64,000 nt of DNA from Candidatus Latescibacterota bacterium (GCA_963667175.2 CAXXXF010000002.1:224001-288000); one strand, 5' to 3'. Numbered from the stretch's first letter, positions 32,751-62,224 are shown. The notes: generated from the letters alone by a model not told the origin. Numbers and translations are program-made.

Positions 32751-32804
32751 CTACTTAGAAAATAACCTTTCAGATTTCGAAGAATCCTGTTGTTTTTCTT
32801 TTAT

Positions 32805-41077: not shown

Positions 41078-42003
41078 CGATTCACATATTCGGGATGGCG
41101 CTCACACACGAGGGCACCTTCTCCAACAATCGAGGCGAAAACGAGGGCAATACCAACACCCTCCAGAAAGTCATTCGCAACGGCGACTTGTTCTCCACCG
41201 TCTCGGCAGAGGCAATCCGCTATGCTTTGCGCGATGGCTGGCAGCAAGCTGGCGAAACACTGAACCGAAAGACGCTCGATCATCGCGCTGTCGAATACAC
41301 TGACCGCGAATTTGCTGATGGTAATTGGTCAAATCGTCTTGACGATGATGTTCTTGGATTTATGCACGCAAAGAACGATACTGTCAGCCGGCGCGCGCCA
41401 CTGGAAGTGACTCGCGCCATTTCGGTAACGCCATGGACCGGAGAGACCATTCACAATTTCGCCTCTCCCGGCTCCAATCCGGCGAGACCAGATGACAATG
41501 ACCCAATCCCGTATTCGGTGGAGGTCCACCACACTCGCTATCAGTTCGGATTCGCCTTAACTCCCGATTCTTTGGGTCGGGAAAGGAATGACGCCGATAG
41601 CGCACACGACAATGATGAAAGGATCAGGCGTATTGATGCAACGCTGAATGGCCTCGCTAGCCTGCGGCGAGTCGGCGGCGCACATGCCCGCTATTTCGCC
41701 GACTACTCCCCGGAAATTCTCATCCTTCGCGTAACCACCGATCCCGCGCCGCGTATGCTCTATTGCTTTGAGCAACATGAGGGAAGTGGGAAAATCAGCG
41801 TCTGCGCCCTAAAAAAGAAGCTCGGCAGGGATATCGATCCCAAAGAATTGATTGTTGGCGCGGCAATCGACATCTCTGGGTTGAGTGATTTGGAAAGGGA
41901 CGATGGCGGACAAATCACCGGCGAGAGTCCATGGAATGGCGCAACCTTGACCGACGGTGTGAAAGATGCGGTCAAGAAATGCGTCGAGCGTTTGAAAGGC
42001 TAG
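41074..42003 (+). CDS. cas7: Cas7 (DevR-like)
   Basis: NNRGENEGNTNTLQK, VSAEAIRYALR, DDDVLGFM, HTRYQFGF. Confidence 0.92.
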   Translation: MTIHIFGMALTHEGTFSNNRGENEGNTNTLQKVIRNGDLFSTVSAEAIRYALRDGWQQAGETLNRKTLDHRAVEYTDREFADGNWSNRLDDDVLGFMHAKNDTVSRRAPLEVTRAISVTPWTGETIHNFASPGSNPARPDDNDPIPYSVEVHHTRYQFGFALTPDSLGRERNDADSAHDNDERIRRIDATLNGLASLRRVGGAHARYFADYSPEILILRVTTDPAPRMLYCFEQHEGSGKISVCALKKKLGRDIDPKELIVGAAIDISGLSDLERDDGGQITGESPWNGATLTDGVKDAVKKCVERLKG

Positions 42004-42008
42004 GCACA

Positions 42009-42701
42009 GTGACCGATGTGACTTCGGTGGAAAGCGCTATCCTCGTCCTGCGAGTGGATGTCCCGATGATGGGTCTGCGCCCGATGTGGGCGCGGGAGTA
42101 CCAAGAGACCTACCCCGCGCCGCCGCCCTCTACAATCTACGGCATGTTGCTTTCACTCGTTGGCGTTGAACGCCATAGAAAAGACAGGCACGTCGGTTTA
42201 CGCATTGCGCTCGCCCTAGCCGAAAATACAAAGGAGTCACTTTGGCAAAGGCGAGAAAAGGGGCGCATTTTCCGCAAGTTTCGTCGGGTGGCGCAAGCTA
42301 AGAAAAACGCGGATCCGCTGGCCGACCGTCGTCCAGACTACCAAGAGTTATTGCTTGGCTTGGAGTTCTGGCTGTGGATTGACGACTCGCAGGCGAGTCA
42401 CCCGCTATGCGATGAAATCCGCAAGGCGCTAGACCCTGAAAAGCGCGACGAAATCGTCCGCCACGGCGCACTATGCCTCGGCGAGTCCTCGCACATGGTC
42501 AATGAAGTCACGAAAGATCGCCCACATGGAAAAGGGAGCTTTGTGGCCCCGTGCGAAAAGGGGTTTCTTTCCATGCCGGTCTGGAGCGATTACAAAGAGA
42601 ATCGGCCTACCGTGCTCAATTTCGAGATTCGCGAGCCGGAGGAATTGACTGACAACCCACCCCCCGACTGCTGGATCACCGTTGCTCCGCGTGACGGGTA
42701 A
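42009..42701 (+). CDS. cas5: Cas5 (DevS-like)
   Basis: AREYQETYPAPPPSTIYGMLLSLVG, PDYQELL, LCLGESSHMVN. Confidence 0.92.
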   Translation: MTDVTSVESAILVLRVDVPMMGLRPMWAREYQETYPAPPPSTIYGMLLSLVGVERHRKDRHVGLRIALALAENTKESLWQRREKGRIFRKFRRVAQAKKNADPLADRRPDYQELLLGLEFWLWIDDSQASHPLCDEIRKALDPEKRDEIVRHGALCLGESSHMVNEVTKDRPHGKGSFVAPCEKGFLSMPVWSDYKENRPTVLNFEIREPEELTDNPPPDCWITVAPRDG

Positions 42702-42705
42702 TTCT

Positions 42706-44376
42706 ATGAACGACACTTCCTCCACTTCATCCGCTGACCGTGACGATCATCCGATCATCCGCGTCATGGCGTTACATGCACTCGCTTACTGCGAGCGCCT
42801 TTTCTACCTGGAAGAGATCGAAGAAATCCGCGTTGCCGACCACCGCGTCCACGCCGGGCGCACCCTGCATGACTCCGAAGTAGATAAGAATCGCGAGTGG
42901 CAAAGTCTGGAGCTTTCCAGCGAGGTATGGGGCATTCGCGGCAAGGTGGATTTCGCCCGCTACCGCGACGGGCGACTCGTTGCGGTTGAGCACAAGAAGG
43001 GCCGTTCCAAAGGCGACGACGCTTGGGATAGCGACAAGCTCCAAGTTACCGCTTACGCCGTGCTCCTCTCCGAGCATTTCGGCAGGCCGGTTCCCGAAGG
43101 GCGCGTACGCTATCACGCCAGCAACAAGACGGTGCGCGTGGCCGTGGACGATACGGCCCTTGAGCGGTTGCGGCTCGCCGTGGCCCGTGCGCGGGAATTG
43201 TCGCTTTCCTTGGAACGTCCGCCGGTGACGGACAATGAAAACCTGTGCGCCAAGTGCTCGCTCGCGCCGGTGTGCTTGCCGGAGGAGTCGCGCTTGGCAG
43301 CCGTTGTTGATGCGGCTGACGATACCGCCAGCCTCTCGAAACCGCGACGCCTTTTTCCGAAAGACGACACACGGCGTGTTCTGCATGTGGTGGACCGAGA
43401 CGCGCAGGTCAGGCGTGCTGGTCTACAGTTCGTGGTCCGCAATTCCAAGGGTGAAGAAAGGAAGTTTCCCGGCATGGACGTCGGCGCCGTCATTCTGCAC
43501 GGAAGCGCGCAGATTACCTCTCAGGCCATTCAATTTGCCGCGGCTAACGACATCGCCGTGCACTGGATCAGCGGCGGTGGATGGTACGTCGGAGGCGTCG
43601 CGCCGCCCGCGGGCGCCCAGCGCCGTTTGCGCCAATATCAAGCATTGCAGGAAAGCGATTTGCGGTTGCGCCTCGCCCGTCGCCTGGCGGCGGCCAAAAT
43701 CGAAAACCAATTGCGTTTCATCAGTCGCCAGTCGCGCACTCGAAACGCACGCGATAAGGTAAAGTCCTATCTAAACGCCATGCGCAACGAGCTTCGGGAC
43801 GTGGGTGGTTGCACGGACCCAGGCGCTCTGCGCGGCTGCGAGGGCATTGCGGCCCGCAATTACTTTTCGGCTCTTGCCGAATTGCTGGATCCGGGGGAAG
43901 AGTCCATGGCGTTCTCTGGTCGCAGCCGTCGTCCGCCGCTCGACGGCTTCAACGCCGCACTTTCTTTTGGTTACGGCTTGCTATACAGGGAAGTCATGGC
44001 CGCGATCATTGCGGTCGGGCTGGATTCCACGATCGGGTTTTTTCACGCGGCACGCACCGCGGCCCATCCGCTGGCGCTGGATGTAATGGAGCTGTTTCGC
44101 ACGACGCTGTGGGACATGCCTCTGGTGGCGTCCGTCAACAGACGGCAATGGACCGAGGAGCATCTCGCGGTGAGCAAGAAGCAAGTGTGGCTTTCCGATG
44201 AGGGCAAGCGTTTGGCCGTACGTCTCTTTGAGCAACGAAAGCAGGAATCCTGGAAACACCCTGTGTTACAATATTCCCTGAGTTATGCTCGTGCCATTGA
44301 ACTGGAGGCGCGGCTTTTGGAAAAGGAATGGAATGGCGAGGAAGGGCTGTTTGCCCGTATGCGCCTGCGAGGATGA
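42706..44376 (+). CDS. cas1: Cas4-Cas1 fusion
   Basis: YCERLFYLE, GKVD, EHKKG, C..CSL..VCLP (Cas4); EG.AA..YF, RRPP.D..NA.LSFGY, LALDVMELFR (Cas1). Confidence 0.95.
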   Translation: MNDTSSTSSADRDDHPIIRVMALHALAYCERLFYLEEIEEIRVADHRVHAGRTLHDSEVDKNREWQSLELSSEVWGIRGKVDFARYRDGRLVAVEHKKGRSKGDDAWDSDKLQVTAYAVLLSEHFGRPVPEGRVRYHASNKTVRVAVDDTALERLRLAVARARELSLSLERPPVTDNENLCAKCSLAPVCLPEESRLAAVVDAADDTASLSKPRRLFPKDDTRRVLHVVDRDAQVRRAGLQFVVRNSKGEERKFPGMDVGAVILHGSAQITSQAIQFAAANDIAVHWISGGGWYVGGVAPPAGAQRRLRQYQALQESDLRLRLARRLAAAKIENQLRFISRQSRTRNARDKVKSYLNAMRNELRDVGGCTDPGALRGCEGIAARNYFSALAELLDPGEESMAFSGRSRRPPLDGFNAALSFGYGLLYREVMAAIIAVGLDSTIGFFHAARTAAHPLALDVMELFRTTLWDMPLVASVNRRQWTEEHLAVSKKQVWLSDEGKRLAVRLFEQRKQESWKHPVLQYSLSYARAIELEARLLEKEWNGEEGLFARMRLRG

Positions 44377-44657
44377 GCGAACGACACTGGTATCTCTTCA
44401 GTTACGATATCCGCGAACCCAAACGGTGGCGTCGTGTGCACAAGATTGTAAACGGATATGGGGAGCGGTTGCAGTATTCGGTATACCGATGTCACTTGAC
44501 GCGGGCACAGATGGAACAGGCGAGGCATGAGCTGGAGAAGGTGATGGGGGAAGACGACGACCTACTTGTGATTCGACTCTCCCATCGCTGCAAGATCGTC
44601 GAGCGGACCGAAAGCAGAACGTGGACGGAGCCGCCGCCCAGGTTCGATATCCTTTAG
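44373..44657 (+). CDS. cas2: Cas2
   Basis: YLFSYDIREPKRWR, GERLQYSVY. Confidence 0.95.
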   Translation: MSERHWYLFSYDIREPKRWRRVHKIVNGYGERLQYSVYRCHLTRAQMEQARHELEKVMGEDDDLLVIRLSHRCKIVERTESRTWTEPPPRFDIL

Positions 44658-44908: not shown

Positions 44909-46961
44909 ACGCAGAAATCTTTGATGCCGAAAGGCGTTGAGCACTTCGAATGAGAATGACTCCACACGAAAAGATCATGAACGCAGAAATCTTTGATGCC
45001 GAAAGGCGTTGAGCACAAAGAAACATCGAAGACGTCCAGGCAAATGACCTTGACGCAGAAATCTTTGATGCCGAAAGGCGTTGAGCACGGGAATGTCATT
45101 GTGGATCGGCAGTGGTTGGTGTATACGCAGAAATCTTTGATGCCGAAAGGCGTTGAGCACTCGATCGGTTCGCCGTCGATCCAGATCCGGCGCGCCAGAC
45201 GCAGAAATCTTTGATGCCGAAAGGCGTTGAGCACCCGTTGCCTGTTCCACTGCGCTCCCCTTTCGCTGCCTACGCAGAAATCTTTGATGCCGAAAGGCGT
45301 TGAGCACCGCTCAGGAAGTCGATTGGCAACGTCGTAGAAGCACGCAGAAATCTTTGATGCCGAAAGGCGTTGAGCACAAGAACATCCAGTCCGCGTATCA
45401 GCACGATACATACGCAGAAATCTTTGATGCCGAAAGGCGTTGAGCACTTGCGCCTCTGCTGGTCCAGCCGCTGGCTCGTGAAGCACGCAGAAATCTTTGA
45501 TGCCGAAAGGCGTTGAGCACCTGGTTGCGCGTTCGCGGATCACACGCCAGGCCCGCCGACGCAGAAATCTTTGATGCCGAAAGGCGTTGAGCACATGGGA
45601 GTGGGCAAGAGGACAGCCCACCCCCATCACACGCAGAAATCTTTGATGCCGAAAGGCGTTGAGCACATACCGAGGGCATTCGCCGCTTCTCTTCCTGCGA
45701 GGTTACGCAGAAATCTTTGATGCCGAAAGGCGTTGAGCACAAGACATCTGGAATTTGAGCGGATTGACGCGGGCGACGCAGAAATCTTTGATGCCGAAAG
45801 GCGTTGAGCACTATCAGACGACGGCCGGCTCGAACACCTTTCCGAACGACGCAGAAATCTTTGATGCCGAAAGGCGTTGAGCACAGGAAAAATCAAATGT
45901 CTTTGTAATGAATGGTGGATACGCAGAAATCTTTGATGCCGAAAGGCGTTGAGCACTATCAGGAATTCAAGGAGCGATTTCTTGTCAATCAACGCAGAAA
46001 TCTTTGATGCCGAAAGGCGTTGAGCACAATGATGCAACACCCGGCGCAACAGGGGGAAGTTGCAAACGCAGAAATCTTTGATGCCGAAAGGCGTTGAGCA
46101 CATCATGGTTGTTCCCCTTGTATGTGTTTGTTGCGCTACGCAGAAATCTTTGATGCCGAAAGGCGTTGAGCACGCTTTAGCTGATGGTTCCCGTAGATGG
46201 GTAGAGATTGACGCAGAAATCTTTGATGCCGAAAGGCGTTGAGCACTCCGATTGCCAGTAGACAATCGACGGCGTTTCGATAACGCAGAAATCTTTGATG
46301 CCGAAAGGCGTTGAGCACTCACAATCGCGGCTGCCGGCGAATCGATCGGCTCGACGCAGAAATCTTTGATGCCGAAAGGCGTTGAGCACGTTAAGAGTTC
46401 GCGGAAAGCCTGCTTGGCCGCCACGCAGAAATCTTTGATGCCGAAAGGCGTTGAGCACCCGCGATCAACCTGGAAAACCGGCTGCGGGTCGACGCAGAAA
46501 TCTTTGATGCCGAAAGGCGTTGAGCACTTAGTTGTGTGGCAAGGGAATAAGCCCAAGCCCGAACGCAGAAATCTTTGATGCCGAAAGGCGTTGAGCACAT
46601 TGATTGCGAATTTCCACTTGATGCCCGCATCTTCGACGCAGAAATCTTTGATGCCGAAAGGCGTTGAGCACGTAAACAGCCTGGAAGATCATCCAGAATC
46701 AATACACTACGCAGAAATCTTTGATGCCGAAAGGCGTTGAGCACTCCGATTGCCAGTAGACAATCGACGGCGTTTCGATAACGCAGAAATCTTTGATGCC
46801 GAAAGGCGTTGAGCACGACCGCCCGCAGTTGCAGGACGGTGTCGCGCAGATCGACGCAGAAATCTTTGATGCCGAAAGGCGTTGAGCACAACCCACATCG
46901 CACACCATCTGTGCCTTTGTTGCCGACGCAGAAATCTTTGATGCCGAAAGGCGTTGAGCAC
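44909..46961 (+). CRISPR. CRISPR array, 29 repeats (ACGCAGAAATCTTTGATGCCGAAAGGCGTTGAGCAC, 36 nt) and 28 spacers of 33-38 nt
   Basis: Counted by eye; hairpin GCC-GAAA-GGC; orientation from the leader side and 3' GTTGAGCAC end. Confidence 0.97.
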
Positions 46962-46998
46962 CCAATGACCATGGCTTGTTCGATAGTGGGGTGAAATC

Positions 46999-47562
46999 TT
47001 GACGCAAAAGGAAATCATCGCACGTCGCCCAAGGCTCAAAGTTCCGGATGAATTTCAGGATGAATGGGTGACTTTGGCCGACGTCGGGTTCGACGGGGAG
47101 TGGGTATCGCCGATTCAGAAGAAATCGAACAGCAGGAAAGGTCCGGTACTCGTAGCGAAACACTGGTTCGATGCGGAATCCGTGAATCTGAATCGAAAAG
47201 TCCTCGAGTGCTTCGGGTATCTGCCCGGCAATCCGTTCAACCGCGCACTTGACCGGGTTCTTGCGTCTGTCGGTCTTGAGCGTGGGGACGTCTACATCAC
47301 GCAGGCGTGCCACTTCCTGCCGAAGAACGACAAGCGGAAGAGAGTGCCGTCCAAATTGATGAAGCTTTCCGTGGAGACGGTGACCCGCCATGAAGTTGAG
47401 GGTCGGCGGGTGATCGCCTTGGGTGGCGAGGCACAGATGGCCTTGACGCGTGCCAATATTGGCTTCCTGCCGTGCCCGCATCCGAGTTCATCGGTCGCTG
47501 GACGATTCGAGGAATTGGCAGAAGCGCTTCGCGATTCGGCGCCGTTCGTCAGCGCCAGTTAG
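46999..47562 (+). CDS. Uracil-DNA glycosylase superfamily-like protein (paralogue of 52777-53316)
   Basis: VYITQA.HF, VIALGGEA, CPHPS motifs. Confidence 0.65.
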   Translation: MTQKEIIARRPRLKVPDEFQDEWVTLADVGFDGEWVSPIQKKSNSRKGPVLVAKHWFDAESVNLNRKVLECFGYLPGNPFNRALDRVLASVGLERGDVYITQACHFLPKNDKRKRVPSKLMKLSVETVTRHEVEGRRVIALGGEAQMALTRANIGFLPCPHPSSSVAGRFEELAEALRDSAPFVSAS

Positions 47563-47564
47563 TG

Positions 47565-47777
47565 ATCTCCCCTCGCTTCGGCGGCCTGCCTGCGCAGCGG
47601 TGTGCGCTGCAGGCAGGGGGGAGCGGATTGAAACCTCTCCCCGATCCCGTCCTACGGATGCCGGTTGTCGTATCTCCCCTCGCTTCGGCGGCGGGAGCGG
47701 ATTGAAACTTGTGTGAGATGTCCTCAGGACAGTCGAGGCAGGATCTCCCCTCGCTACGGCGGGGGGAGCGGAATTCC
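47565..47777 (+). CRISPR. Degenerate mini-array of a second repeat family (ATCTCCCCTCGCTTCGGCGGnGGAGCGGATTGAAAC): 3 repeats, 2 spacers
   Basis: Repeats at 47565-47634 (interrupted), 47672-47708 and 47743-about 47777; spacers 37 and 34 nt. Confidence 0.8.
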
Positions 47778-47804
47778 TTTAAAGGAACAAGAGGGAGTCA
47801 ACAC

Positions 47805-48740
47805 ATTAGGCGAATCGTACTCAGCCGCAAGGGATTCGACTCGAGCCGCAAGGGATTGGAATCGCCGAACGGCGGCGTGCCCAGTCCCATTTTCCCGGAC
47901 GGTCGAATCCTTTCCTTGCCTATTCCGACTCCCAGGCGCTATCCTCAATCTTCGAAACGGTTTGACGACATTGTGTGGGATGGTAGATCGCTATCTCCGC
48001 TCGTGGAGAGTCTTAGTAAAGTTAGAGGTGAGTGTTGGTGCCACTTGGATCCGGATATTCGAGCAGATGCGATCCAACGGCAACCTGGATGGCGGCCGGC
48101 GTTCGGACAGGTTGATGGATCTCAATCCCAATTGGCCAATCAGGAAGTCTCTCAGGGCGACCTGTTCCTGTTTTTTGGTACATTCCGGCGTGTCGAAGAT
48201 GATGGCAGTGGAGGTTGGCGTTACGTCAGAACCGCACCGAAAGTCCATATGCTTTTTGGCTGGTTACAAGTGCAGGAGGTTTTGTCGTTTCGTACTAATG
48301 CCGACTACGACCGGGCACTTTGCAAGTATCCGTGGCTGTCGGACCACCCACATCTCCACAGATCATTTACGGAACGTGCCCACAGTCTTCGCAAGCTTCC
48401 GAACAACACCGTCTACCTGTCGAACCCGAAGCTCAATATACGGGGAATAGACCTACCGGGAGGTGGCGTATTTCAGAGTGAACACGGCCGTATCGTATTG
48501 ACTGATCCAGAGGAGGTTGGAAAAGGAGCACCCTGTCGGCCTTCGTACTGGAGGCTGCCCGAGTGGTTCTGGCCGGACAGCGATTATCGCCGGTTACGAC
48601 GCAAAGTCATGTTGCGGCGGCGCGACACGGAGTGGATCCATGTCGCCTCGGGAGGTAGGGGACAGGAGTTCGTAGTTGACGTACACGACGTCTCAGATGC
48701 CGCAAACAAGTGGGTGCGCAATCTGTTCGAAGATGCTTGA
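47805..48740 (+). CDS. Nmad3 (nucleotide modification-associated domain 3)-like protein; expected ATG reads AGG at 47808
   Basis: IVLSRKGFDS...GGVPSPIFPDG..LSLPIP, CHLDPD, FGQ, GDLFLFFG.F, HPH, GQEFV. Confidence 0.75.
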   Translation: MRRIVLSRKGFDSSRKGLESPNGGVPSPIFPDGRILSLPIPTPRRYPQSSKRFDDIVWDGRSLSPLVESLSKVRGECWCHLDPDIRADAIQRQPGWRPAFGQVDGSQSQLANQEVSQGDLFLFFGTFRRVEDDGSGGWRYVRTAPKVHMLFGWLQVQEVLSFRTNADYDRALCKYPWLSDHPHLHRSFTERAHSLRKLPNNTVYLSNPKLNIRGIDLPGGGVFQSEHGRIVLTDPEEVGKGAPCRPSYWRLPEWFWPDSDYRRLRRKVMLRRRDTEWIHVASGGRGQEFVVDVHDVSDAANKWVRNLFEDA

Positions 48741-48767
48741 GCGGCACCAAGAGTCCGAGAGGTCGCG

Positions 48768-48803
48768 GCGCAGAAATCTTTGATGCCGAAAGGCGTTGAG
48801 CAC
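48768..48803 (+). CRISPR. Solitary repeat of the main array family (35/36 identical)
   Basis: gcgcagaaatctttgatgccgaaaggcgttgagcac, 27 bp after the Nmad3 stop. Confidence 0.92.
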
Positions 48804-49182
48804 GTGATAAAAGAGGCGAGTTGCGATTCTTGGCGATGCAGGCGTCTGGAATTTGAGGGATTGTAGTGGGTGATAGATCGTCTTTCCTGTGGAGTTTACC
48901 GTTCAATAAGAATCAGTCGATCCACGCAATGCAGTCTTAGTGATAAGGGGGGAGCCAATGTCGACACACAAGCTGGAGATCGTACAGGTACTGGAAAAGT
49001 ATCCTGACGGGGCGCTGGTCGAGGAGTTGATGAAAGAAAGGCGGCGGATAAGGAAGTCCGAGACCGGATTGACGCTGCTCGCGTTTTTGCCCGCCAGTGG
49101 GACATCGTACGGGTAGACCATTGTACTTTTCAACTGATGCTGTGAATTGGCAGGTGCGTCACCGTTAGGTAACCATGCACAG

Positions 49183-49286
49183 GTATTGTGCCCACTAAGG
49201 AGCGGTTTGAAATATCAAAACTCCAATGCAGGTGTTCAGTGACCCGTGGGAAATCGAGAATCTTCCATCAGAACAAGGATTGAAAA
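49183..49286 (+). CRISPR. Hybrid repeat-spacer-repeat unit
   Basis: ...taaggagcggtttgaaat, 36 nt, then gaaatcgagaatcttccatcagaacaaggattgaaaa. Confidence 0.65.
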
Positions 49287-49503
49287 TACCCGTGGACAGG
49301 GTCTATTGATTCACTACAGAAGGCTTAGAAAGTACGAACGGTCTGGTTCCTGACGACGCTTTATGCTTAAAGTGCGGAGCAATCGGTTACGGTCAGTGCA
49401 CATGCCCTACACCGGCCCATTGCTGCGACTGAACGGCTCCAGGGGATCTACATTGCACCTGTGCCGTAGGACAGGGACCCGTGTGGTCAGACGAGGAGTA
49501 AAT

Positions 49504-50094
49504 ATGCTGATTTTAATTCTGCTCTCCGTGGGCTTAGCCCAGGCGGAGCTGCCAGAAGGTTTTTCTACCTGGGACTTGTCGATCAAAAAGGATCCCATCG
49601 AAGAAACGACAACTATACGGCTGACCCTGCATGGTGAGGCATTGGTGTATGTTAAGGGTCAGCGATATGGTAGAGAGTATGATCATTTTGGGGCGATCTC
49701 CTTTAGTTGTCATTTGTCCAGATATGCAAGCACAGTAGAAATGGGTGTATTGACCCATAAATCGTTCATATATGGTGTAGAGGAAGGGGACGCGGTGGAG
49801 CCAGCGTTCATGATTATGCGATATGATAGTAAAACGCCGAAGAAGATATTCGGATGGAAAACGACAAGGGTGAAAGGTCGGGATCTGCTTCTACCACCTG
49901 AGGGATTTATGAACGCATTCGTAGATACATTACGTAAAGGCGGACATTATGAATTGTTGTTAAGATCGGAATCGCCGTTTACTGGTAAGCGATGGACAAT
50001 GAAATTTAACGTCACTCACAGTAGACGAAACGTGATGAACTTTCTTAGAAAGTGTAAGGCTCACCGGAGGGATGATCACGGCTACAACTACTGA
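49504..50094 (+). CDS. Secreted hypothetical protein
   Basis: GAGGAG RBS, signal peptide ending AQA, lower GC than the core genes. Confidence 0.65.
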   Translation: MLILILLSVGLAQAELPEGFSTWDLSIKKDPIEETTTIRLTLHGEALVYVKGQRYGREYDHFGAISFSCHLSRYASTVEMGVLTHKSFIYGVEEGDAVEPAFMIMRYDSKTPKKIFGWKTTRVKGRDLLLPPEGFMNAFVDTLRKGGHYELLLRSESPFTGKRWTMKFNVTHSRRNVMNFLRKCKAHRRDDHGYNY

Positions 50095-50188
50095 GCATTT
50101 GAATAGCGCCATATTTCTTCCTGCTCAAGCAGTTGAAGATATAGAGAAGGATGATTGGTATCGCGGACACCTGCGAACGCGCACGTAA

Positions 50189-50225
50189 CCCGTTGAGAAT
50201 CTTCCATCGGAACAAGGGTAGAAAC
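50189..50225 (+). CRISPR. Solitary degenerate repeat, CTTCCATCAGAACAAGGATTGA family
   Basis: cccgttgagaatcttccatcggaacaagggtagaaac. Confidence 0.65.
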
Positions 50226-50280
50226 TTGCCCAAACCAGAAAACGGGCGACAAAGTAGCTGATGGGGCTCTCTACTTAGAT

Positions 50281-50598
50281 TTGGACGGTGGAGAATTAGG
50301 CAAAACGGTCTTGTCCGTCGAAGGCGGAAACATCCGACCGTCGGATTTACAAGACCTGCAAGGGGTGTTACATTCCGATCCAGATGCCCGCCTTTCCGGT
50401 TTCCTTTCGTTGAATGAACCCACAAAGGCAATGGGAAAGGCTGTCAGTTCAGATGGACAATGGAGTTACAAGGGCGAGACCTACGACAAAATTCAGTTGC
50501 TCACCGTTCGTGACGTGGTCGACGGGAAGCGGTTGTTCCAGACGCCTACCAGCCTGAAATACAAGGATTACCACTTGCAGGAAACGATCCGGTTTTAG
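50281..50598 (+). pseudogene. Fragment of an Mrr-like restriction endonuclease domain, of the kind fused C-terminally to DNA methyltransferases
   Basis: SV.GG.IRP.D..DL.GVL...GFLSL..PT..M...Y.KIQLLTV; N-terminus absent. Confidence 0.55.
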
Positions 50599-50990
50599 AT
50601 CTCCAATTCGGGAAGAAGACATATGCGACCGAATCTCGCGCAGGTCAAGTCGTTTATTCTATCCGAGTTTCCTGAGTTACTGCCAGATGGCCATTGAAGA
50701 CGGATGGTCTTTTTTCTATAAAGAGATAAGAAAAGGACGCGACTCCACCCGAATCGCCCGCGTCAAGCAGGCGAGCTCAAACAGTAAAATAGATTTCAAA
50801 CCTGCTGTTACTGCCAGAATAACGGGAGATGAACGATTGAGGGTTGAGATAACAACTGACTGGGAGAACGAGATTCGCAACGTAACCGAACGGGAGTTGG
50901 AACTTTGGGAGTGCCATTTCGGGAAACAGGATTGGCAATTTTAAACCCAAAACGCACCAGCCCGTCTCTTAATTTCGTCCTGCGCGCGTG

Positions 50991-51092
50991 ATTTCCCCTC
51001 GCTTCGGCGGGGCACGAGGGATTGAAGCTAGTCCACGGGGGCGATCCGTAAGGGTATCGGGTCGCCCCCTACGTGGTGCGTGGGCTGAAAAA
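50991..51092 (+). CRISPR. Hybrid unit: family-2 repeat, 32-nt spacer, type I-C-like repeat
   Basis: atttcccctcgcttcggcggggcacgagggattgaagc (50991-51028); gtcgccccctacgtggtgcgtgggctgaaa (51061-51090). Confidence 0.65.
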
Positions 51093-51153
51093 GCGCCGCC
51101 ACGCTTATTTACAGGTAACCCGTTTCCACTCCATACTTCGACAAGGAGGTCCG

Positions 51154-51741
51154 ATGGACACGAGTGAATTGTACGAATTTAGCCAGGGTCTGGAGTCGCT
51201 GATCCGAAAACCGACCGATCTGCGACCCTTCGTATGTGAGGGTTCGCCTCTTGCATGTGATGCGTTCCTCGTGGGTATCAATCCCGCGAGCGAAATGTCG
51301 GATGACTTCTGGGATTTCTGGTCGGACAGTTATGGATTCGACAAGAGCGCGTGGTTTGAGAAGTACAAGGAGGAGCGAAGAACTCGCCCGCTGAAACTCG
51401 GAAGGAAGAGAAGGAATGAAGTAAGCAACACACGCAGAATCATCGAGGAGGTCGTTTTGGGCGCCAATCCCGTCAAATGTCTTGAGACGAACATATACGC
51501 GAAAGCGACGAAACAGGCATCGGACCTGGACGAGCAAAACAGAATCACGGCGCCCTTCGACTATCTCTTGCGCGAGATAGCGCCGAAGTTGGTGATTGCC
51601 CACGGCAAGGACGCTGCCGAGTACCTGCAAGCGCAGGACCTACCGTGCAAACTCAGGTGTGTCAAACATTTCCGACTCTGGTCCAAGCAGAACGCGCGAG
51701 ATCTAGGGTTGAGTATTCGCAGGTATTGTGAGGGAGAGTAG
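51154..51741 (+). CDS. Uracil-DNA glycosylase superfamily-like protein
   Basis: FLVGINPA, ETNIY, PKLVIAHGK, KHF; AAGGAGG RBS. Confidence 0.65.
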   Translation: MDTSELYEFSQGLESLIRKPTDLRPFVCEGSPLACDAFLVGINPASEMSDDFWDFWSDSYGFDKSAWFEKYKEERRTRPLKLGRKRRNEVSNTRRIIEEVVLGANPVKCLETNIYAKATKQASDLDEQNRITAPFDYLLREIAPKLVIAHGKDAAEYLQAQDLPCKLRCVKHFRLWSKQNARDLGLSIRRYCEGE

Positions 51742-51887
51742 CGGGACCGCGCGTGAAAACCCGCCTCGGGTTCACAGCCCATTCGCTTCGCCGGTTGACG
51801 TCCAAAGTCGCTAGGCGAGCCACGCCCGCTGAGATTCCTGCATAAGTAACGAGGTTTGACCGGAACGAAGGATGAAGGGGTCTATGG

Positions 51888-52751
51888 ATGATCAAGATAG
51901 TCAGTTGGAACATCGACAACCGAATGCAGCCGTGGTGCGAACTGGTGCGGATGGCGCAGGACGGCGAGGCCGACCTGGCGCTCCTGCAGGAAGCGGGTGG
52001 CCCGCCAGGCGACCTTGTACATCTGGTCGAATACGATGATGCGGTGTTTTGGAACCGCCAACTTTACGACCGATGGCCACTGGTCGTGAAGTTGTCCGAT
52101 CGAATAGCAGTCGAACATTACCGACAGGTGCCGCCGATCAGCGAACTTGGTATGAGCGACATTGGCGTGAGCGGTATCGGGACCATCGCCGCCGCGAGGG
52201 TGATCCCTTACGAAAGTGAAGATGAGGCCTTCGTCGCTGTCTCCATGTACGCGCGCTGGCTGAAGCCGCATCCGTCTACGGATAGCCCATGGAAAGTCGG
52301 TTACTCGGATGCGTCGGCACATCGAGTTATTTCGGACCTATCGGCTTTCATCGGTCACACCAACCCGTCCAGACACAGGATTCTGGCGGCAGGCGACCTG
52401 AACATGTTTTACGGGGCAACCGGCACGAGACTGTCACTGCCGGAACGTGAGCGCACGGTCTGGGATCGAATGAAATCGCTCGGACTGGAATTTTTGGGAC
52501 CGCAGGTTCCTTGCGGACGACCCGCACCGACTGCGCCGGACGACGTACCTTGCGATACGAAGAATGTACCGACGTACTACAAGGTTGGAGAATGCCCGGA
52601 AAAGGCGACGAATCAATTGGACTACGCATTTGCGTCGCACGGCTTCCACGAAAGGGTTTCAGTACGGGCGATGAACGAGATTTGCGAATGGGGATGCAGC
52701 GACCACTGCAGGCTGATCATTGAGGTAAAGACGAACGCCGATAGCGCCTGA
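51888..52751 (+). CDS. Endonuclease/exonuclease/phosphatase (EEP) family protein
   Basis: IVSWNI, LLQEA, AGDLN, LDYAFAS, SDH. Confidence 0.88.
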   Translation: MIKIVSWNIDNRMQPWCELVRMAQDGEADLALLQEAGGPPGDLVHLVEYDDAVFWNRQLYDRWPLVVKLSDRIAVEHYRQVPPISELGMSDIGVSGIGTIAAARVIPYESEDEAFVAVSMYARWLKPHPSTDSPWKVGYSDASAHRVISDLSAFIGHTNPSRHRILAAGDLNMFYGATGTRLSLPERERTVWDRMKSLGLEFLGPQVPCGRPAPTAPDDVPCDTKNVPTYYKVGECPEKATNQLDYAFASHGFHERVSVRAMNEICEWGCSDHCRLIIEVKTNADSA

Positions 52752-52776
52752 CAGAGTTGCGCCACGAGGTGAAACC

Positions 52777-53316
52777 ATGGAACGAGAGGACATAATCGAA
52801 CGTCGCCGAAGCCTTCAAGTTCCGGACGAATTTCAGGATGAATGGATGACATTAGCCGACGTCGGGTTCGACGGTGAGTGGGTATCGCCAATTCAGAAGA
52901 TATCGAACAGCATGAGGGGTCCGGTACTCGTAGCAAAGCACTGGCTCGACGCCGAATCCGTGGATCTGAATCGGGAAGTCCTCGAATGCTTGGGATATTT
53001 GCCTGGCAACCGATTCAATCAGTCTCTTAATCGGGCCCTGGCAAATGTCGGGAAAGCACGTGGGGACGTCTACATTACACAGGCGTGCCACTTCCTACCG
53101 AAGGACGACAAGCGGAAGCGAGTGCCGGCCGAATTGATGAAACTTTCCGTGAAGGAGGTGACCCGCTATGAAGTTGAGGGTCGAAGGGTCATTGCGTTGG
53201 GTGGTGAGGCTCAGTTGGCCCTGGAGCGTTTCGGTATTGATTTTCTGCCGTGCGCGCATCCGAGTTCATCGGTCACTGGACGATTCGAGGAATTGGCAGA
53301 TGCGATTCGAGATTAG
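52777..53316 (+). CDS. UDG superfamily-like protein (paralogue of 46999-47562)
   Basis: Highly similar translation; VIALGGEA, CAHPS. Confidence 0.65.
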   Translation: MEREDIIERRRSLQVPDEFQDEWMTLADVGFDGEWVSPIQKISNSMRGPVLVAKHWLDAESVDLNREVLECLGYLPGNRFNQSLNRALANVGKARGDVYITQACHFLPKDDKRKRVPAELMKLSVKEVTRYEVEGRRVIALGGEAQLALERFGIDFLPCAHPSSSVTGRFEELADAIRD

Positions 53317-53341
53317 GCGCCGTTCGTGGGCTCTATCCCAA

Positions 53342-53451
53342 ATCTCCTCTCGCTTCAGCGGTGGGAACGGATTGAAACGCGTCGCGCCGCTCGCAGATGG
53401 AGTGGATGGCGGCGCCCAGCGAGAGCCTTCCATCAGAACAAGGATTGAGAC
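53342..53451 (+). CRISPR. Three abutting repeats of different families
   Basis: 53342-53378 family 2; 53381-53408 I-C-like gtcgcgccgctcgcagatggagtggat; 53415-53451 cccagcgagagccttccatcagaacaaggattgagac. Confidence 0.7.
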
Positions 53452-53456
53452 TGCTT

Positions 53457-53633
53457 ATGCCGCAAGATATCCGAAATCGACAGGAACCGGCCGCCTTCCA
53501 GGTCTGGCATCCGGATGGGACGCCCTTTTCCGATGATGACTATCGAAAGGCCGGAATGCCTGTACCAACCCCCGAGCAGATCGCTCACTGGGCTGAGATG
53601 GACCGAAGTTTCGCCGATCCGGATACTGACTGA
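53457..53633 (+). CDS. Small hypothetical protein (WHPDGTP domain)
   Basis: Conserved paralogue at 55643-55837 and a fused copy at about 57105-57200. Confidence 0.6.
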   Translation: MPQDIRNRQEPAAFQVWHPDGTPFSDDDYRKAGMPVPTPEQIAHWAEMDRSFADPDTD

Positions 53634-53653
53634 GGCTTGATCGGATACATCCG

Positions 53654-53689
53654 CCCAGAGAAATCGTCCATCAAAGAATGGATTGAAGC
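53654..53689 (+). CRISPR. Solitary degenerate repeat overlapping the methyltransferase start
   Basis: cccagagaaatcgtccatcaaagaatggattgaagc aligns with 53415-53451. Confidence 0.55.
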
Positions 53690-54522
53690 TGCCCAACGGG
53701 CTGCGTCCGGACGGAGGACCTGAACTTGTGACTGGCGCCAACTACGACACTCCCTGGTGGCCGCTTATATACGACCAGTGGAACGAGCGGGGCGATAGGC
53801 AGCAGACGCACCAGCGCGAGTTCCAATTCTACAGCATGCAGCTCACCGGAGAGGCGGGTCCGATCCTCGAAACGGCTTGCGGCACTGGTTCGATTCTGCT
53901 TCGCCTTTGGCGCCACGGCGTTGACATAAGGGGTTTCGATTGCGCCGCAGGGATGCTGGCCGTTCTGCGGCGCAAGGCAGCGGCTCTGGGGCTGGGCGAT
54001 ATCGACCGCCGCGTTGGCTGTCAAGACCTCGTTGACTTCTGCTACGACCAGTCCTTTGCAGCCATTCTGATTCCGGCCAGTTCGTTCATGCTCTTACCCA
54101 CACAGTCGGCCCAAATCACCTGTCTCGAACGCATTCGCGCGCATATGGCACCTGGCGGGCGGCTACTGATGAATTTCTACATCCCGTCGCTTGCCGACGA
54201 CCTGCTTGCCCACATCGCCCCGTCCCCGTCGCTGGAAACATTCGGCGAATTCATCCACCCCCAAACAGGCCGCCAAATCAGCGTCCGCTTCAAAAAGATC
54301 GTCGATCTGGGCGAGCAGACTGAGCACTACGAGTGGTTTTTTCTCTACGACGGAGAAACTGCAGCCGTGCCCATGACTGCGCGGTGGATCTACAAAGAAG
54401 AATTTCAGCTATTGCTGCGTCTGGCAGGATTTAGCCGCTGGCGGCTTTCTGGCACCCACGACGGCCAGCCGTACACAGGTTCAAAGGAGATTGGGACGAC
54501 GTACTGGGTCGTCGAACGCTGA
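53683..54522 (+). CDS. Class I SAM-dependent methyltransferase
   Basis: ILETACGTG, GFD...ML, HMAPGGRL. Confidence 0.85.
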   Translation: MKLPNGLRPDGGPELVTGANYDTPWWPLIYDQWNERGDRQQTHQREFQFYSMQLTGEAGPILETACGTGSILLRLWRHGVDIRGFDCAAGMLAVLRRKAAALGLGDIDRRVGCQDLVDFCYDQSFAAILIPASSFMLLPTQSAQITCLERIRAHMAPGGRLLMNFYIPSLADDLLAHIAPSPSLETFGEFIHPQTGRQISVRFKKIVDLGEQTEHYEWFFLYDGETAAVPMTARWIYKEEFQLLLRLAGFSRWRLSGTHDGQPYTGSKEIGTTYWVVER

Positions 54523-54851
54523 GCGGATCAGTACCTGCAAACGGTGGTGACCGTTTGGTAAGCTGGTTAGGGTCTGCCAGCACCGTTGGTTGAAAGACGA
54601 TAGGTATTGTTCGCTACTGCATCAGGGGATACTTCAAGGCGATTCAGTTCGCCACGGCGAGACACAATCGACTGGGTTCCCTGCCTGGCCAATGCGTGAT
54701 GGCGACCCGCCGGAAATCTGGTTTCAGCTGGACAAAGGACGACCTCTCCAACATGATCGACAAGACTTTGAAGTGGGACGTGGATTGAAGCTGCTGCGGG
54801 GTTTATCCCAGGGGACGGACTGTATCACGCGACACAGGAGGAGATGACCCA

Positions 54852-55538
54852 ATGTGCGGTCGATTTACCCAGATGATGTCCTGGGGTGAGCTCCATTGGC
54901 TTTACAGCCTGTCCGAACACTCGGAATCGCTGGAGTTGCAATCCCGCTATAACGGCGCGCCGACCCAGGATTTCGCGGTCTGCCGCCTGGACGGAAACGG
55001 CAACCGGGAGATCGACAGGCTGCAATGGGGTCTGGTACCCGCGTGGTCCAAAGACGTCAGAATCGGCGCCCGCATGATCAACGCACGGGCCGAAAGCGTA
55101 CACGAGAAACCGGCATTCGGCGCCGCCTTTCGGGCGCGCCGGTGCCTGGTGCCGGCCGACGGGTGGTTCGAGTGGCAAGCAGCAGGGAGCGCCAGACAGC
55201 CCTACTTCCTGGCGCTCGCGGACGGGTCGACGCTGTCGTTCGCCGCGCTGTGGGAACGCTGGGATAGAGGCGGCGCCGCCCTGGAGTCATTTACCATCAT
55301 CACCACGGCCGCCGACGAAGCGCTTTCCAACGTCTACCATCGCCAGCCTGCCGTCATCAATCCCGAACACTTCTCCGTCTGGCTCGACAACGAATCATCC
55401 GCGGCGACGTTGCTGGATCTGGTTCGCTATCCTCGCGCGGGACCGTACGAAATACGCGCCATCGGCGCTCGCGTAAACAATGTCCGAAACGACGATCCGG
55501 ACGTTCTCCTGCCCACGTCCCAGCAGCGCCTGTTCTAA
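54852..55538 (+). CDS. SRAP (YedK/HMCES) abasic-site-protecting autopeptidase
   Basis: N-terminal MCGRF, YN.APTQ, INARAES, RCLVPADGWFEW, HRQP.I. Confidence 0.93.
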   Translation: MCGRFTQMMSWGELHWLYSLSEHSESLELQSRYNGAPTQDFAVCRLDGNGNREIDRLQWGLVPAWSKDVRIGARMINARAESVHEKPAFGAAFRARRCLVPADGWFEWQAAGSARQPYFLALADGSTLSFAALWERWDRGGAALESFTIITTAADEALSNVYHRQPAVINPEHFSVWLDNESSAATLLDLVRYPRAGPYEIRAIGARVNNVRNDDPDVLLPTSQQRLF

Positions 55539-55544
55539 GTCCAC

Positions 55545-55637
55545 ACGGGAGAGCGGATTGAAACGACAAAACACCAGTGCCGGTGGTCAGTGACCCGTGG
55601 CCCAGTGAGAGTCTTCCATCAGAAAAAGGATTGAGAC
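55545..55637 (+). CRISPR. Hybrid repeat-spacer-repeat unit (paralogue of 49183-49286)
   Basis: acgggagagcggattgaaac, 36 nt, then cccagtgagagtcttccatcagaaaaaggattgagac. Confidence 0.7.
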
Positions 55638-55642
55638 TGCCT

Positions 55643-55837
55643 ATGCCGCAAGATATCAGAAATCGCCAGGAGCCCGCCGCCTTCCAGTGCTGGCATCCGG
55701 ACGGTACCCCTTACTCGCCGGCAGACTATCGAAAGGCCGGGATGCCTGTCCCGACCCCCGAGCAGATCGCCCACTGGGCTGAGATGGACCGAATATTCGC
55801 CGATCCGGTGAGAATTGTCAATCAGAACAAGAAGTGA
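55643..55837 (+). CDS. Small hypothetical protein (WHPDGTP domain), second copy
   Basis: MPQDIRNRQEPAAFQCWHPDGTP...DYRKAGMPVPTPEQIAHW. Confidence 0.6.
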   Translation: MPQDIRNRQEPAAFQCWHPDGTPYSPADYRKAGMPVPTPEQIAHWAEMDRIFADPVRIVNQNKK

Positions 55838-55876
55838 AACAGCGAATCCGTCCCAATCCTCGCCTGGACGATCGAT

Positions 55877-55912
55877 GTCTCCCCTCGCTTCGGCCGGGGA
55901 GCGGATTGAAAC
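55877..55912 (+). CRISPR. Solitary family-2 repeat
   Basis: gtctcccctcgcttcggccggggagcggattgaaac. Confidence 0.8.
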
Positions 55913-55991: not shown

Positions 55992-57257
55992 ATGCTATTC
56001 AGACTTACTCGAGATGGAGATAAGAACGGTTTTCAGCCATATGTCGAAACGTCAGCATCAGACTTGCAACTCACCGAAAAGAACCTGGAAACCTGGATGG
56101 CGCTGCACCCTGAGTTGCTTTTTGGAAGCGAGCAAGTCCTTGTGATCAGCCAGTCAGTCGCAGGTCAGAGCATGGGCGACATTCTGGCGTTAGACGCCGA
56201 TGGATGTTTAGTGATCGTCGAGATTAAGCGGGACTGGTCCGATAGAGCGACGGTTGGCCAAATCCTGGAATATGCGGCCGAAATGACCGGGAAATGTTAT
56301 GAGGACCTGGAGAAACTGCATCACAGCTACTGGATCAAACAACACTCGAATTGTAATTATGCATCCTTGCTGACGCGGTTTCAAACCCTGACCGACAACC
56401 ACGAATGTGATGAGGACGATATTCCGAGACGTCAAAAAGGTCATCGAATTCTAGTCGTCGCACCGGCTGCTGACGAGGGCCTGATGAGGATTGTAGAGTG
56501 GCTTAGAGAGTATGGTGTGCCGATCAGCTTTGTGCCTTTCACGATCCATGCAGATACGGAAAGCAAAGACATCTTGCTGGAGCTAGAGCCGCTCCCCGAG
56601 GCTCAGTCGTTCGGAGAAATGGTAGACAGTCAGGAATGGCGTGGAGATTGGATCTTTAATACGAACGAAACTTACGCCCCAGGCGCATACCGAAAGATGT
56701 TTGATCAACGCGTAATTGCTATCCACGGATATGAGAGCGGTCCAGCCAATCTGACAGGTAGTGCCGAAGGGCAGCGGGTATTCGCTTATGTAAATCGCAA
56801 AGGTGTCCTGGCGGTGGGTCGTATCGTTAACGGCCAACCGGTTTCGGGGACAACCGTGTTTGGCGAGGAACGCGAGTTCCATGTGAAGGTCGTCTGGGAG
56901 ACAATCGTGGACGATGACAGGGGAATGACATTACGGGACGTCAGCGAAGAAAAAGGTTACAATCTCCCTGTTCGATGTGTCTTTGCTCGCATGAATCGTC
57001 CCGATGCCGCCGATTGGATCGCCGACGAACTGCAAAGCAGGATGGATAAACGTAATCCTGGACGTAGAGGCTCAAGATTCTCAGACCCTATCGTCGGCCG
57101 CGCCTGGCATGCCGACGGCACGCCTTTTGGTGAGGAAGACTACAGGAGAGCGGGCTTGTATGTCCCCACCGAGGAACAATTGGCCGCGTGGGAGAAGGCG
57201 GATGCCGAACGCGACGCGCTACCGCCCGGTGAGAATCTACCGCCAGAACAGGAATGA
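55992..57257 (+). CDS. NucS/DUF91-like PD-(D/E)XK endonuclease with putative EVE/PUA-like domain and C-terminal WHxDGTP domain
   Basis: EKNLE.W...P.L, DILALD..G.LVIVEIKR...VGQILEY; G.RVFAY...GVLAVG.I. Confidence 0.7.
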   Translation: MLFRLTRDGDKNGFQPYVETSASDLQLTEKNLETWMALHPELLFGSEQVLVISQSVAGQSMGDILALDADGCLVIVEIKRDWSDRATVGQILEYAAEMTGKCYEDLEKLHHSYWIKQHSNCNYASLLTRFQTLTDNHECDEDDIPRRQKGHRILVVAPAADEGLMRIVEWLREYGVPISFVPFTIHADTESKDILLELEPLPEAQSFGEMVDSQEWRGDWIFNTNETYAPGAYRKMFDQRVIAIHGYESGPANLTGSAEGQRVFAYVNRKGVLAVGRIVNGQPVSGTTVFGEEREFHVKVVWETIVDDDRGMTLRDVSEEKGYNLPVRCVFARMNRPDAADWIADELQSRMDKRNPGRRGSRFSDPIVGRAWHADGTPFGEEDYRRAGLYVPTEEQLAAWEKADAERDALPPGENLPPEQE

Positions 57258-57404
57258 AGCAGCAGTGGTCGGTGGTCCGTGTCAGTGACCAGTCCGAAAG
57301 CCGGATGATGTACGGGAAGGTGCATGCGCGCCTGCGGATGCCGGCTTCCAGCTCAATTCCGTGGGTCTTCAAAGCCGAAATGAATCCGGGGAGGCAGGGA
57401 AACC

Positions 57405-58277: not shown

Positions 58278-58588
58278 AGGGTTGTGCCGAGTATCGGCAG
58301 ACGGAACAGAAAGGCATCGCTGGAAATCTCGGCGGGAGAACAGATATGCGGCGAAGCAACGAAAAGCGCAATCGTCTTGCTGCACTCGCCCGCCATCTCC
58401 GGGACAATGTTCCATCCGGATTCCGGGGGGCGGCGACTATCATTCGGGCGTTTATGAATGCGGATTCGTATCGCCGTATACAAAGTTGGCAGGCAATCTA
58501 CACGCATGTGTCGCAAATTGCGACACATGCCAGCACCTGCGTCGTTCGTTGGCGCATTCGCTGCCAACAAACAGGCCGCACGGTACCC

Positions 58589-62173: not shown

Positions 62174-62224
62174 CGGGTTGTGCCCTGGCCCCGGGTACCT
62201 GTAGGGGCGACCGGCCGGTCGCCC

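Follow-up and report, generated by a model that had tools for sequence, protein, structure and literature searches.

At the trailer end of CRISPR arrays, terminal repeats decay, and repeat-mediated rearrangement duplicates or deletes repeat-spacer units through recombination. Standalone repeats and degenerate mini-arrays near CRISPR-cas loci were described by Shmakov et al. (2023, 10.1101/2023.03.03.530964), who attribute such units to the recombinogenic nature of repeats; the class requires a partially complementary target in the locus, and mini-arrays without a target or positional conservation are regarded as degraded CRISPR repeats. For CreTA and CreR, repression of toxin or cas promoters by degenerate mini-CRISPRs is described (PMC8501985, 10.1101/2023.03.10.532045), and Racr is described as solitary repeat units, or RNA anti-CRISPRs, of mobile elements (PMC10651486). 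Here we examine a stretch of 64,000 nt (the window; GCA_963667175.2, CAXXXF010000002.1:224001-288000) from a Candidatus Latescibacterota genome (G000; 5.5 Mb, 95% complete), where the zone behind a CRISPR array contains two copies of a unit composed of the end of one CRISPR repeat, an insert of 36 nt and a repeat of another type. These units are probably duplicated, decayed relic junctions, in which remnants of a type I-C and a type I-B array enclose a heptad tract of the trailer type, and are best placed among the degenerate standalone repeats already known as a class. The original prediction for this DNA was thus partly upheld: the observation was confirmed and the repeats are supported as recombination joints, while a demonstrated regulatory guide is not.

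Each unit consists of the last 15-30 nt of a family-A repeat (A′), which in both cases lacks the middle of the hairpin, followed by 36 nt (S1 or S2, collectively S) and a 37-nt family-B repeat. Family A is type I-C-like, with consensus ATCTCCCCTCGCTTCGGCGGCGGGAGCGGATTGAAAC in the window, and family B is type I-B-like, with consensus CCCGNTGAGAATCTTCCATCAGAACAAGGATTGAAAC across the genus. The units and their other copies are as follows, in window coordinates:

49183..49213, + strand: A′ of unit 1, a family-A repeat without mid-hairpin
49214..49249, + strand: S1, insert of unit 1, CAAAAC and then degenerate heptads
49250..49286, + strand: family-B repeat of unit 1, 1 mismatch to the 31-nt genus consensus, no open reading frame (ORF) directly behind
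49449..49503, + strand: third, decayed copy, an S-like stretch (49449-49484, 26/36 to S2) and a decayed, shortened B repeat
53342..53451, + strand: unit 3, with a full A repeat (53342-53378), a spacer (53379-53414) and a B repeat (53415-53451)
55535..55564, + strand: A′ of unit 2, a truncated A end that begins inside the final bases of the SRAP gene
55565..55600, + strand: S2, insert of unit 2, 16/21 against the CAGTGGT heptad consensus
55601..55637, + strand: family-B repeat of unit 2, the 5′ end of a small-ORF cassette in common with unit 3
57224..57295, + strand: B-like repeat (57224-57260) and immediately after it an S-resembling heptad tract, CAGTGGTCGGTGGTCCGTGTCAGTGACCAGTC, together the conserved leader of the Nmad3 cassette 57405-58277

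Direct comparison bore out that S1 and S2 are identical at 30 of 36 positions, including the final 14 nt. This pair is not a product of chance, because a match of at least 27/36 anywhere in the 5.5-Mb genome was reached by only one of 80 shuffled spacers. The left A ends run to 49213 in unit 1 (GGTTTGAAAT) and to 55564 in unit 2 (GGATTGAAAC), so that both units are chimeric, as had been claimed, with an end typical of type I-C in relatives on the left and a repeat typical of type I-B in relatives on the right. The two units form the direct repeat family D13 (49200-49290 against 55551-55641, 91 nt, 80% identity), with no similarity outside either edge: unit 1 has a small winged-helix-like gene on its left and ORF 49504-50094 on its right, and unit 2 is bounded by the SRAP gene (54852-55538) and a 64-aa ORF (55643-55837). 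Homology being limited to these 91 nt and the flanks unrelated, the units are not part of a larger duplication, and they recur beside different genes, both points in agreement with the original prediction. The decayed B repeat of the third copy abuts the ATG of ORF 49504-50094 (196 aa, no family match). Unit 3 is a further A-spacer-B arrangement, whose 36-nt spacer is unrelated to S; it shares with unit 2 the B repeat and the small ORF, which form family D7 (53414-53622 against 55600-55808, 87%).

Beyond the two units, a blastn-short search with S1 and S2 against the genome and the loci of 14 relatives returned only word matches of 11-18 nt. A motif scan identified two homologous units, missed by blastn-short, in one other species (G010), where only ~24 nt separate the repeats owing to an 11-12-nt gap on the 5′ side, the rest being ~79% identical. 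The unit pattern is present in 2 of the 22 genomes of the family. Metagenome contigs searched with two patterns gave 0 matches to the unit or to S, and viral contigs, also with two patterns, 0 matches to S, so that the search proposed for the unit added the decayed third copy and the G010 homologues, and nothing from metagenomes.

Both repeat families form arrays in relatives. Of 61 genomes, 13 contain a 31-nt B pattern (at most 3 mismatches), G000 and 11 of its 14 congeners among them; the reversed pattern, used as control, matched 0. B arrays occur in four genomes as runs of 36, 38, 67 and 80 copies with ~74-nt spacing, that of G009 being flanked by type I-B genes; A arrays of 13 to about 36 copies occur in G007, G010 and G013, with type I-C genes beside A arrays (Cas5c, Cas8c, Csd2, Cas1c); and in G011 an A array and a B array stand in tandem. 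The interruptions of the B array of G002 were considered as candidate cassettes and discarded, both being insertion sequence (IS) elements. In G000, B-like copies were found at 6 places and A-like copies at 3, and a genome motif scan identified no array of A or of B. Its two cas1 loci belong to type I-MYXAN, in the window, and type I-G, on contig C13, and no type I-C or I-B cas1/cas3 locus was found in this 95% complete genome. The Pfam model Cas6_C had no match in G000, whose sole recognised Cas6 is Cmx6, serving a different repeat. The resident repeats end in ...GGCGTTGAGCAC (window) and ...CCTCATTGAAGC (C13), and their likeness to A and B is limited to terminal TTGA-type bases.

The flank past the zone (window-equivalent 69786-72524) matches the flank behind A or B arrays in five relatives, which indicates a single locus that holds type I-C, type I-B, both, or type I-MYXAN, depending on the species. 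On this comparison, three CRISPR subtypes evidently replaced each other at one locus within the genus. A blastn comparison of the region 46.9-76 kb with the trailer loci of 14 relatives showed the same cassettes in different order and combination. In those loci, Pfam identified more Nmad3, UDG-like, EEP, GmrSD, DUF4432 and DUF6361-plus-helicase genes, as well as ParA-like, PIN, WYL and ADP-ribosylglycohydrolase genes. Solitary A or B repeats, 200-6000 nt apart, lie behind the arrays of most relatives, and hetero-type pairs at spacer distance, A-then-B as well as B-then-A, are common in these trailers. In the zone of G000, at least 17 single or paired A-like or B-like copies are scattered among the genes, all in the orientation of the array, and the motif GGATTGAAAC (at most 1 mismatch) is enriched only in C2:270-280 kb, with 11 occurrences in this bin versus at most 4 in any other 10-kb bin.

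The last ten bases of A and B are identical (GGATTGAAAC). A crossover within this common end, or the fusion or collapse of tandem arrays such as those of G011, would produce the order A, spacer length, B. In G000, where type I-MYXAN now occupies the locus and A and B persist only as scattered single copies among genes of the same strand, the unit would then have been copied and its pieces re-assorted by recombination at repeats; units 1 and 2 share A′-S-B, and units 2 and 3 the B repeat and the small gene. The homology between units 1 and 2 stops at the 3′ end of B and that between units 2 and 3 begins at its 5′ end, and the 40 nt upstream of B are only 29% identical between small-ORF cassettes, which is the random level. 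These breaks at the edges of B, together with the random-level DNA upstream, argue for the repeats as joints where pieces were re-assorted. Among 46 clusters of homology left ends, 7 lie on repeats versus 2.4 expected and hold 36 of the 95 high-scoring segment pairs, so that most boundaries are not at repeats. The idea of a functional module, as originally put forward, survives in the part that concerns a recombination site, which fits the mosaic, the ends of D13 and D7 and the 7 left-end clusters on repeats versus 2.4 expected, and is unsupported in the part that concerns a regulatory RNA. Because the 11-12-nt deletion is in both G010 copies and in neither G000 copy, the unit must have been duplicated or homogenised separately in each lineage.

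The 36 nt between A′ and B are probably not an acquired spacer, and the premise that S was acquired as such is doubtful from its composition. S is made of degenerate heptads, with GTG every 6-8 nt. Scored against the CAGTGGT heptad consensus, S2 alone reached 15/21, the cut-off for a tract-like spacer, among 418 repeat-bounded spacers (13 stretches, from G000 and relatives), and 0 of the other 417 resemble S. Of 103 solitary or terminal repeat ends, 5, homologous copies counted, have a heptad tract within the next 16 nt versus 0.38 expected, and one of these ends is the terminal repeat of the array in G009; tracts of this kind also come after the B-like repeat ending at window position 57260 and after the final repeat of the type I-G array on C13. 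The tract after the terminal G009 repeat (...GTGTCAGTGACCAGTC...) and the conserved 3′ end of S (...GTGGTCAGTGACCCGTGG) have in common the 9-nt run TCAGTGACC. In the closest relative, G012, which carries the same resident array, the winged-helix gene is followed by A′ and then directly by a decayed B, without S. A spacer of an array would be bounded on both sides by the same array-forming repeat and accompanied by cognate cas genes; the insert has a truncated A on the left and a B on the right, and G000, at 95% completeness, shows only type I-MYXAN and type I-G. An origin of S from an array leader was discarded, since the true B-array leaders of G009 and G015 are AT-rich and unlike S.

Heptad tracts are also dispersed elsewhere in G000. 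A loose threshold gives ~87 tracts of CAGTGGT, read as CCACTGA on the opposite strand, and a stricter threshold gives 40 loci; a GC hairpin often adjoins the tract (tracts lie for example at window 31400-32760, C15:380397-380520 and C4:136392). About 20 of these tracts are contained in a conserved element of ~100 nt with the structure ATTACCAGGAGCAGTAAATAGTGGA, heptads and GGAAGAGCAGT.... The tract at 32720-32752 abuts the outer end of a tandem pair of identical IS110-family transposase genes (32805-34145 and 34455-35795, 1650 nt apart), situated just upstream of the cas operon. IS110 was dropped as a source of the tracts, the 7 IS110 copies not coinciding with the listed tract loci.

According to the original prediction, the unit could code for a regulatory crRNA-like (CRISPR RNA-like) molecule. 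A mini-array of the CreA or CreR kind, whose RNA would load into a resident type I effector and repress by partial complementarity the promoter of a cas gene, of the adjacent small ORF or of a toxin gene, appears very unlikely here. The layout is suggestive: two repeat-like, degenerate sequences around an insert of spacer length, near a CRISPR-cas locus, in several copies and in two species, with the same small ORF directly behind two of the three units. Moreover, such arrays are reported to be widespread in type I loci (10.1101/2023.03.03.530964), and the first 10 nt of S2 match exactly a higB remnant on C6. Against this, A and B are the repeats of neither resident system, and hence unlike those of the effector that would use them, having in common with these only the terminal TTGA-type bases. 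An ungapped scan of both strands of window positions 30000-64000 (seed of at least 10 of the first 12 nt, or at least 21/36 overall) identified 7 matches for S1 and 9 for S2, counts that include the S copies themselves, versus means of 5.35 and 5.0 for shuffled sequences, so that matches are no commoner than in shuffles. None of the seed or partial matches in this region is a supported site in a cas promoter, and the C6 match lies within a gene remnant instead of a promoter and is flanked by CCA, with no assignable protospacer adjacent motif (PAM). The partial matches of S foreseen in cas or toxin promoters have thus found no support. Neither position nor insert is conserved in close relatives, the G012 ortholog being without S and the shortened G010 copies having lost the 5′ (seed) side. 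The RNA folds predicted for the three units and two reverse strands were no more stable than those of shuffles (z-scores -0.40 to 0.68), and Rfam recognised no family in the 64-kb window. With no cognate cas1/cas3, no excess of matches, S absent in G012 and an ordinary fold, the regulatory RNA was not upheld. As a guide RNA in G000 the unit is most likely inert, given the lack of cognate Cas machinery, the lost hairpin of A′ and the absence of an identified target. An RNA anti-CRISPR would mimic the repeat of a system in the same cell, which A and B do not in G000 and do in relatives such as G009 and G011.

The B repeat has an additional context, in front of a small gene that is present in three copies in this region:

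53457..53633, + strand: 58-aa 'WHPDGTP...HWAE' ORF, copy 1, ATG 5 nt past the B repeat (cassette 53415-53633)
55643..55837, + strand: 64-aa 'WHPDGTP' ORF, copy 2, stop codon within the B-like repeat 55804-55840
C2:292146-292365: third cassette copy, 4.1 kb past the window end

A family-A repeat (55877-55912) lies 36 nt beyond the B-like repeat at 55804-55840. In total, 14 cassettes from 9 genomes show a B repeat, 2-5 nt and the ATG of an ORF of 57-64 aa with the core WHPDGTP(Y/F)S..DY.KAG.PVPTPEQ.AHWAE, and most of them run almost at once into the next B-like repeat. B carries the blocks TTCCATCA and AAGGA; in other zone genes a ribosome site of the GGAGG type precedes the ATG by 5-9 nt, whereas the small ORF has only the AAGGA of B, ~12 nt away. 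Identities between cassettes were as follows:

All 91 pairs: B 3′ 25 nt, 87%; B 5′ 12 nt, 67%; codon positions 1+2, 77%; codon position 3, 49%
36 pairs from four genomes without a B array: B 3′ 25 nt, 90%; B 5′ 12 nt, 68%; codon positions 1+2, 85%; codon position 3, 55%

The 3′ 25 nt of B exceed codon positions 1+2, which indicates that the repeat is held more tightly than the protein behind it, with or without a B array. The small protein has no Pfam or PADLOC family and no usable match in the ESM Atlas; its 13 database relatives are all small, and its AlphaFold model (mean predicted local distance difference test score, pLDDT, of 71) shows a short hairpin and two helices. In viral contigs, only a 16-residue match was found. 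The single homologue found outside the family, of 74 aa and distant, is in a metagenome-assembled genome of Candidatus Binatia (L053 2465-2689), without a CRISPR repeat upstream and on the opposite strand, between a Phage_Mu_F-like head-morphogenesis/ADP-ribosyltransferase gene and a gene for 271 aa. It appears from this context to be a prophage accessory gene, at what we take to be the kind of place where Mu-like phages carry anti-CRISPR genes. As for carriage by a mobile element of the unit itself, the locus is syntenic across species from the array to the conserved flank, its cassettes are mosaic, and the link to a prophage is this one distant homologue of the small ORF.

Before the small ORF, the B repeat may act as a signal for processing or translation, or as the site at which a selfish cassette recombines. 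It is conceivable, if unlikely, that the whole unit or just its B half is an expression signal for the cassette behind it, with read-through from the array promoter, B acting as an RNA-processing site (a Cas6-type cut 8 nt from its end) and/or as a translation start, and A′-S as a spacer-like upstream context. The close position of B before the 14 small ORFs and its identity compared with codon position 3 favour this possibility, as do the single strand and short gaps of the zone genes, the lack of enrichment in the zone of promoter-like sites (17 versus 11.1 +/- 3.4) and terminator-like sites (24 versus 21.1 +/- 5.0), and the EEP nuclease cassette of G015, which directly abuts the terminal repeat of a B-like array of ~86 repeats. 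However, type I-B cas genes and a Cas6_C match are wanting in G000, where Cmx6 serves a different repeat; B is equally conserved with and without B arrays, a poor fit to dependence on Cas6b; there is no ORF behind the B repeat of unit 1; only 7 of the 46 homology boundaries lie on repeats; and the Binatia homologue does without an upstream repeat.

With a similarly low probability, CRISPR repeats in this genus could have been recruited to mark the 5′ boundary of cassettes in an exchangeable, integron-like pool that builds up behind arrays, most clearly in the case of the small 'WHPDGTP' gene, and A′-S-B would be junction scars or entry sites instead of passive debris; the role of the repeat in such a pool, as a recombination site, as a signal for Cas6-type processing or translation, or as both, would be just as tentative. 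The elements differ from those of integrons in that they are CRISPR repeats ending in ATTGAAAC, with no GTTRRRY core seen, and no recombinase family was recognised among the 25 window ORFs scanned, no genome-wide integrase search having been made. The literature searched, apart from supplements, contains no account of chromosomal gene cassettes headed by CRISPR repeats. That B is kept at ~90% while silent sites are near saturation, even without a B array, suggests a non-immune use of CRISPR repeats, for which cassette mobility, RNA processing and translation control are candidates.

Several observations weigh against duplicated relic junctions as the full explanation. The association of repeats and heptad tracts comprises about three independent sequence lineages, the remaining cases being homologous copies, so that the 5 of 103 versus 0.38 overstates the evidence. 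In addition, S has two further near-matches in the genome, of 27/36 at C12:295114, in an AHJR-like/HEPN gene beside a RusA gene, and of 26/36 at C6:197538, in a 31-residue higB remnant (HigB-like, E 0.064); among the shuffles, at least 27 was reached in 1/80 and at least 26 in 4/80 over the whole genome. These matches could indicate descent of S from an acquired spacer, which we consider improbable. S would then be a true old spacer from a gene of a mobile element, preserved as an anchor at the A/B junction where an ancestral array had its trailer end, and without present function, a possibility to which we assign a low probability. The 36-nt spacing of both G000 units, as in real spacers here, and near-matches that exceed shuffles are compatible with it, but the two matched genes are unrelated, so that at least one match is due to chance, and the heptad-like composition inflates matches; furthermore, 0 of 417 other spacers are like S, the G010 units have only ~24 nt between repeats, and viral and metagenome contigs gave no match. 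The presence of two copies in both G000 and G010, after separate duplication or homogenisation, could reflect selection for copy number. The B repeat of unit 1 is nearly perfect, with 1 mismatch, yet no ORF lies behind it, and the clear constraint on B before the small ORF means that not all of the unit can be called a relic. Finally, guides of the CreA type are described as functional with very degenerate repeats (PMC8501985).

The system resident in the window and the genes around the units are as follows:

36238..44657, + strand: type I-MYXAN cas operon, complete from cas6/cmx6 to cas2 (Pfam, NCBIfam)
36238-36864, + strand: cas6/cmx6
36825-39251, + strand: cas3
39143-41077, + strand: cas8a1/cmx1
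41074-42003, + strand: cas7/devR
41931-42701, + strand: cas5/devS
42682-44376, + strand: cas4-cas1 fusion
44328-44657, + strand: cas2
44909..46961, + strand: resident array, 29 copies of the 36-nt repeat ACGCAGAAATCTTTGATGCCGAAAGGCGTTGAGCAC (family D1)
46999..48740, + strand: block between the 29th and 30th resident repeats, with a UDG-like gene, three A repeats and an Nmad3 gene
46999-47562, + strand: UDG-like gene
47598-47634, 47672-47708 and 47743-47779, + strand: three family-A repeats
47709-48740, + strand: Nmad3 gene
48768..48803, + strand: 30th, solitary resident repeat, 1842 nt past the 29th (D1)
48958..49180, + strand: small winged-helix-like gene, native trailer after the last resident repeat, 87% identity to L026 13743-13468

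Type I-G was discarded for this system, to which NCBIfam assigns type I-MYXAN; type I-G corresponds to the second locus, on C13, where positions 49700-81500 contain three type I-G gene sets (three cas3g, several cas7g and csb2) beside one array of 18 repeats, which end in ...CATTGAAGC. The resident repeat ACGCAGAAATCTTTGATGCCGAAAGGCGTTGAGCAC is unrelated to A and B apart from its terminal bases, and is also the repeat of G012 (27 copies) and G016. The resident array is split at 46962-48767; in G012 the Nmad3 cassette comes instead after the trailer gene. The winged-helix-like gene (48958-49180) has a 2-nt frameshift relative to the intact G012 copy (~76 aa) and is either a pseudogene or the product of an assembly error.

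All recognisable genes from ~47 kb to beyond the window end (about C2:293.6 kb) are on the + strand, with short gaps. They include three UDG-like and three Nmad3 genes, an EEP nuclease, a methyltransferase and a SRAP peptidase, many being diverged paralogues. At 54520-54847, a decayed A end comes directly after the methyltransferase stop codon, followed by the leader and, of an EEP nuclease gene, just the C-terminal end (...NMIDKTLKWDVD*); the same nuclease has 443 aa in G007, G008 and G011, and its stop codon falls within the repeat-end motif GGATTGAAGC in all copies. A NucS-like protein of 421 aa (55992-57257) matches the PADLOC candidate defence family PDC-S11 (E 1.5e-29), and the stop codon of its gene falls inside a B-like repeat. 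The distal zone contains paralogous segments with 78-95% identity (57359-58288 and 63587-64000; 58036-58288 and 61932-62184; 59515-59814 and 62204-62503), and since no A or B repeats occur there, duplication in that part is independent of those repeats.

The units exemplify how recombination at a shared repeat end can generate a chimeric repeat-spacer-repeat that mimics a designed mini-array, which calls for caution in automated searches for regulatory crRNA-like elements. The finding is in itself of small weight, and adds a clear, dated case of turnover at a CRISPR locus; the conservation of B in front of the small ORF could prove of greater importance. As in the mini-arrays of Shmakov et al. 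(2023, 10.1101/2023.03.03.530964), two repeat-like sequences, one of them degenerate, surround an insert of spacer length outside an array; unlike those, the repeats belong to two subtypes (I-C-like and I-B-like), neither of them resident, and the insert is made of heptad repeats and occurs in several diverged copies among gene cassettes. Having neither an identified target nor positional conservation, the unit falls on the degraded side of the distinction drawn there. It shares with CreTA and CreR highly degenerate flanking repeats and, in two of three units, a small gene directly downstream, but it has no cognate effector, no PAM-flanked promoter target was found for it in the regions scanned, and S is lost or shortened in relatives. 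As in Racr, single CRISPR repeats lie outside arrays, here beside a small gene with a distant Binatia homologue in a prophage head-morphogenesis module; in contrast, the locus is chromosomal and syntenic in many species, situated behind the host's own array with no recognisable phage or plasmid, and G000 is without the system that A and B would mimic.

With the decay of array trailers the locus has in common decayed terminal repeats and the duplication and deletion of repeat-spacer units, and it differs in the whole genes placed among its relic repeats, in the interleaving of two repeat families, and in the conservation of B, which exceeds that of the coding sequence behind it.

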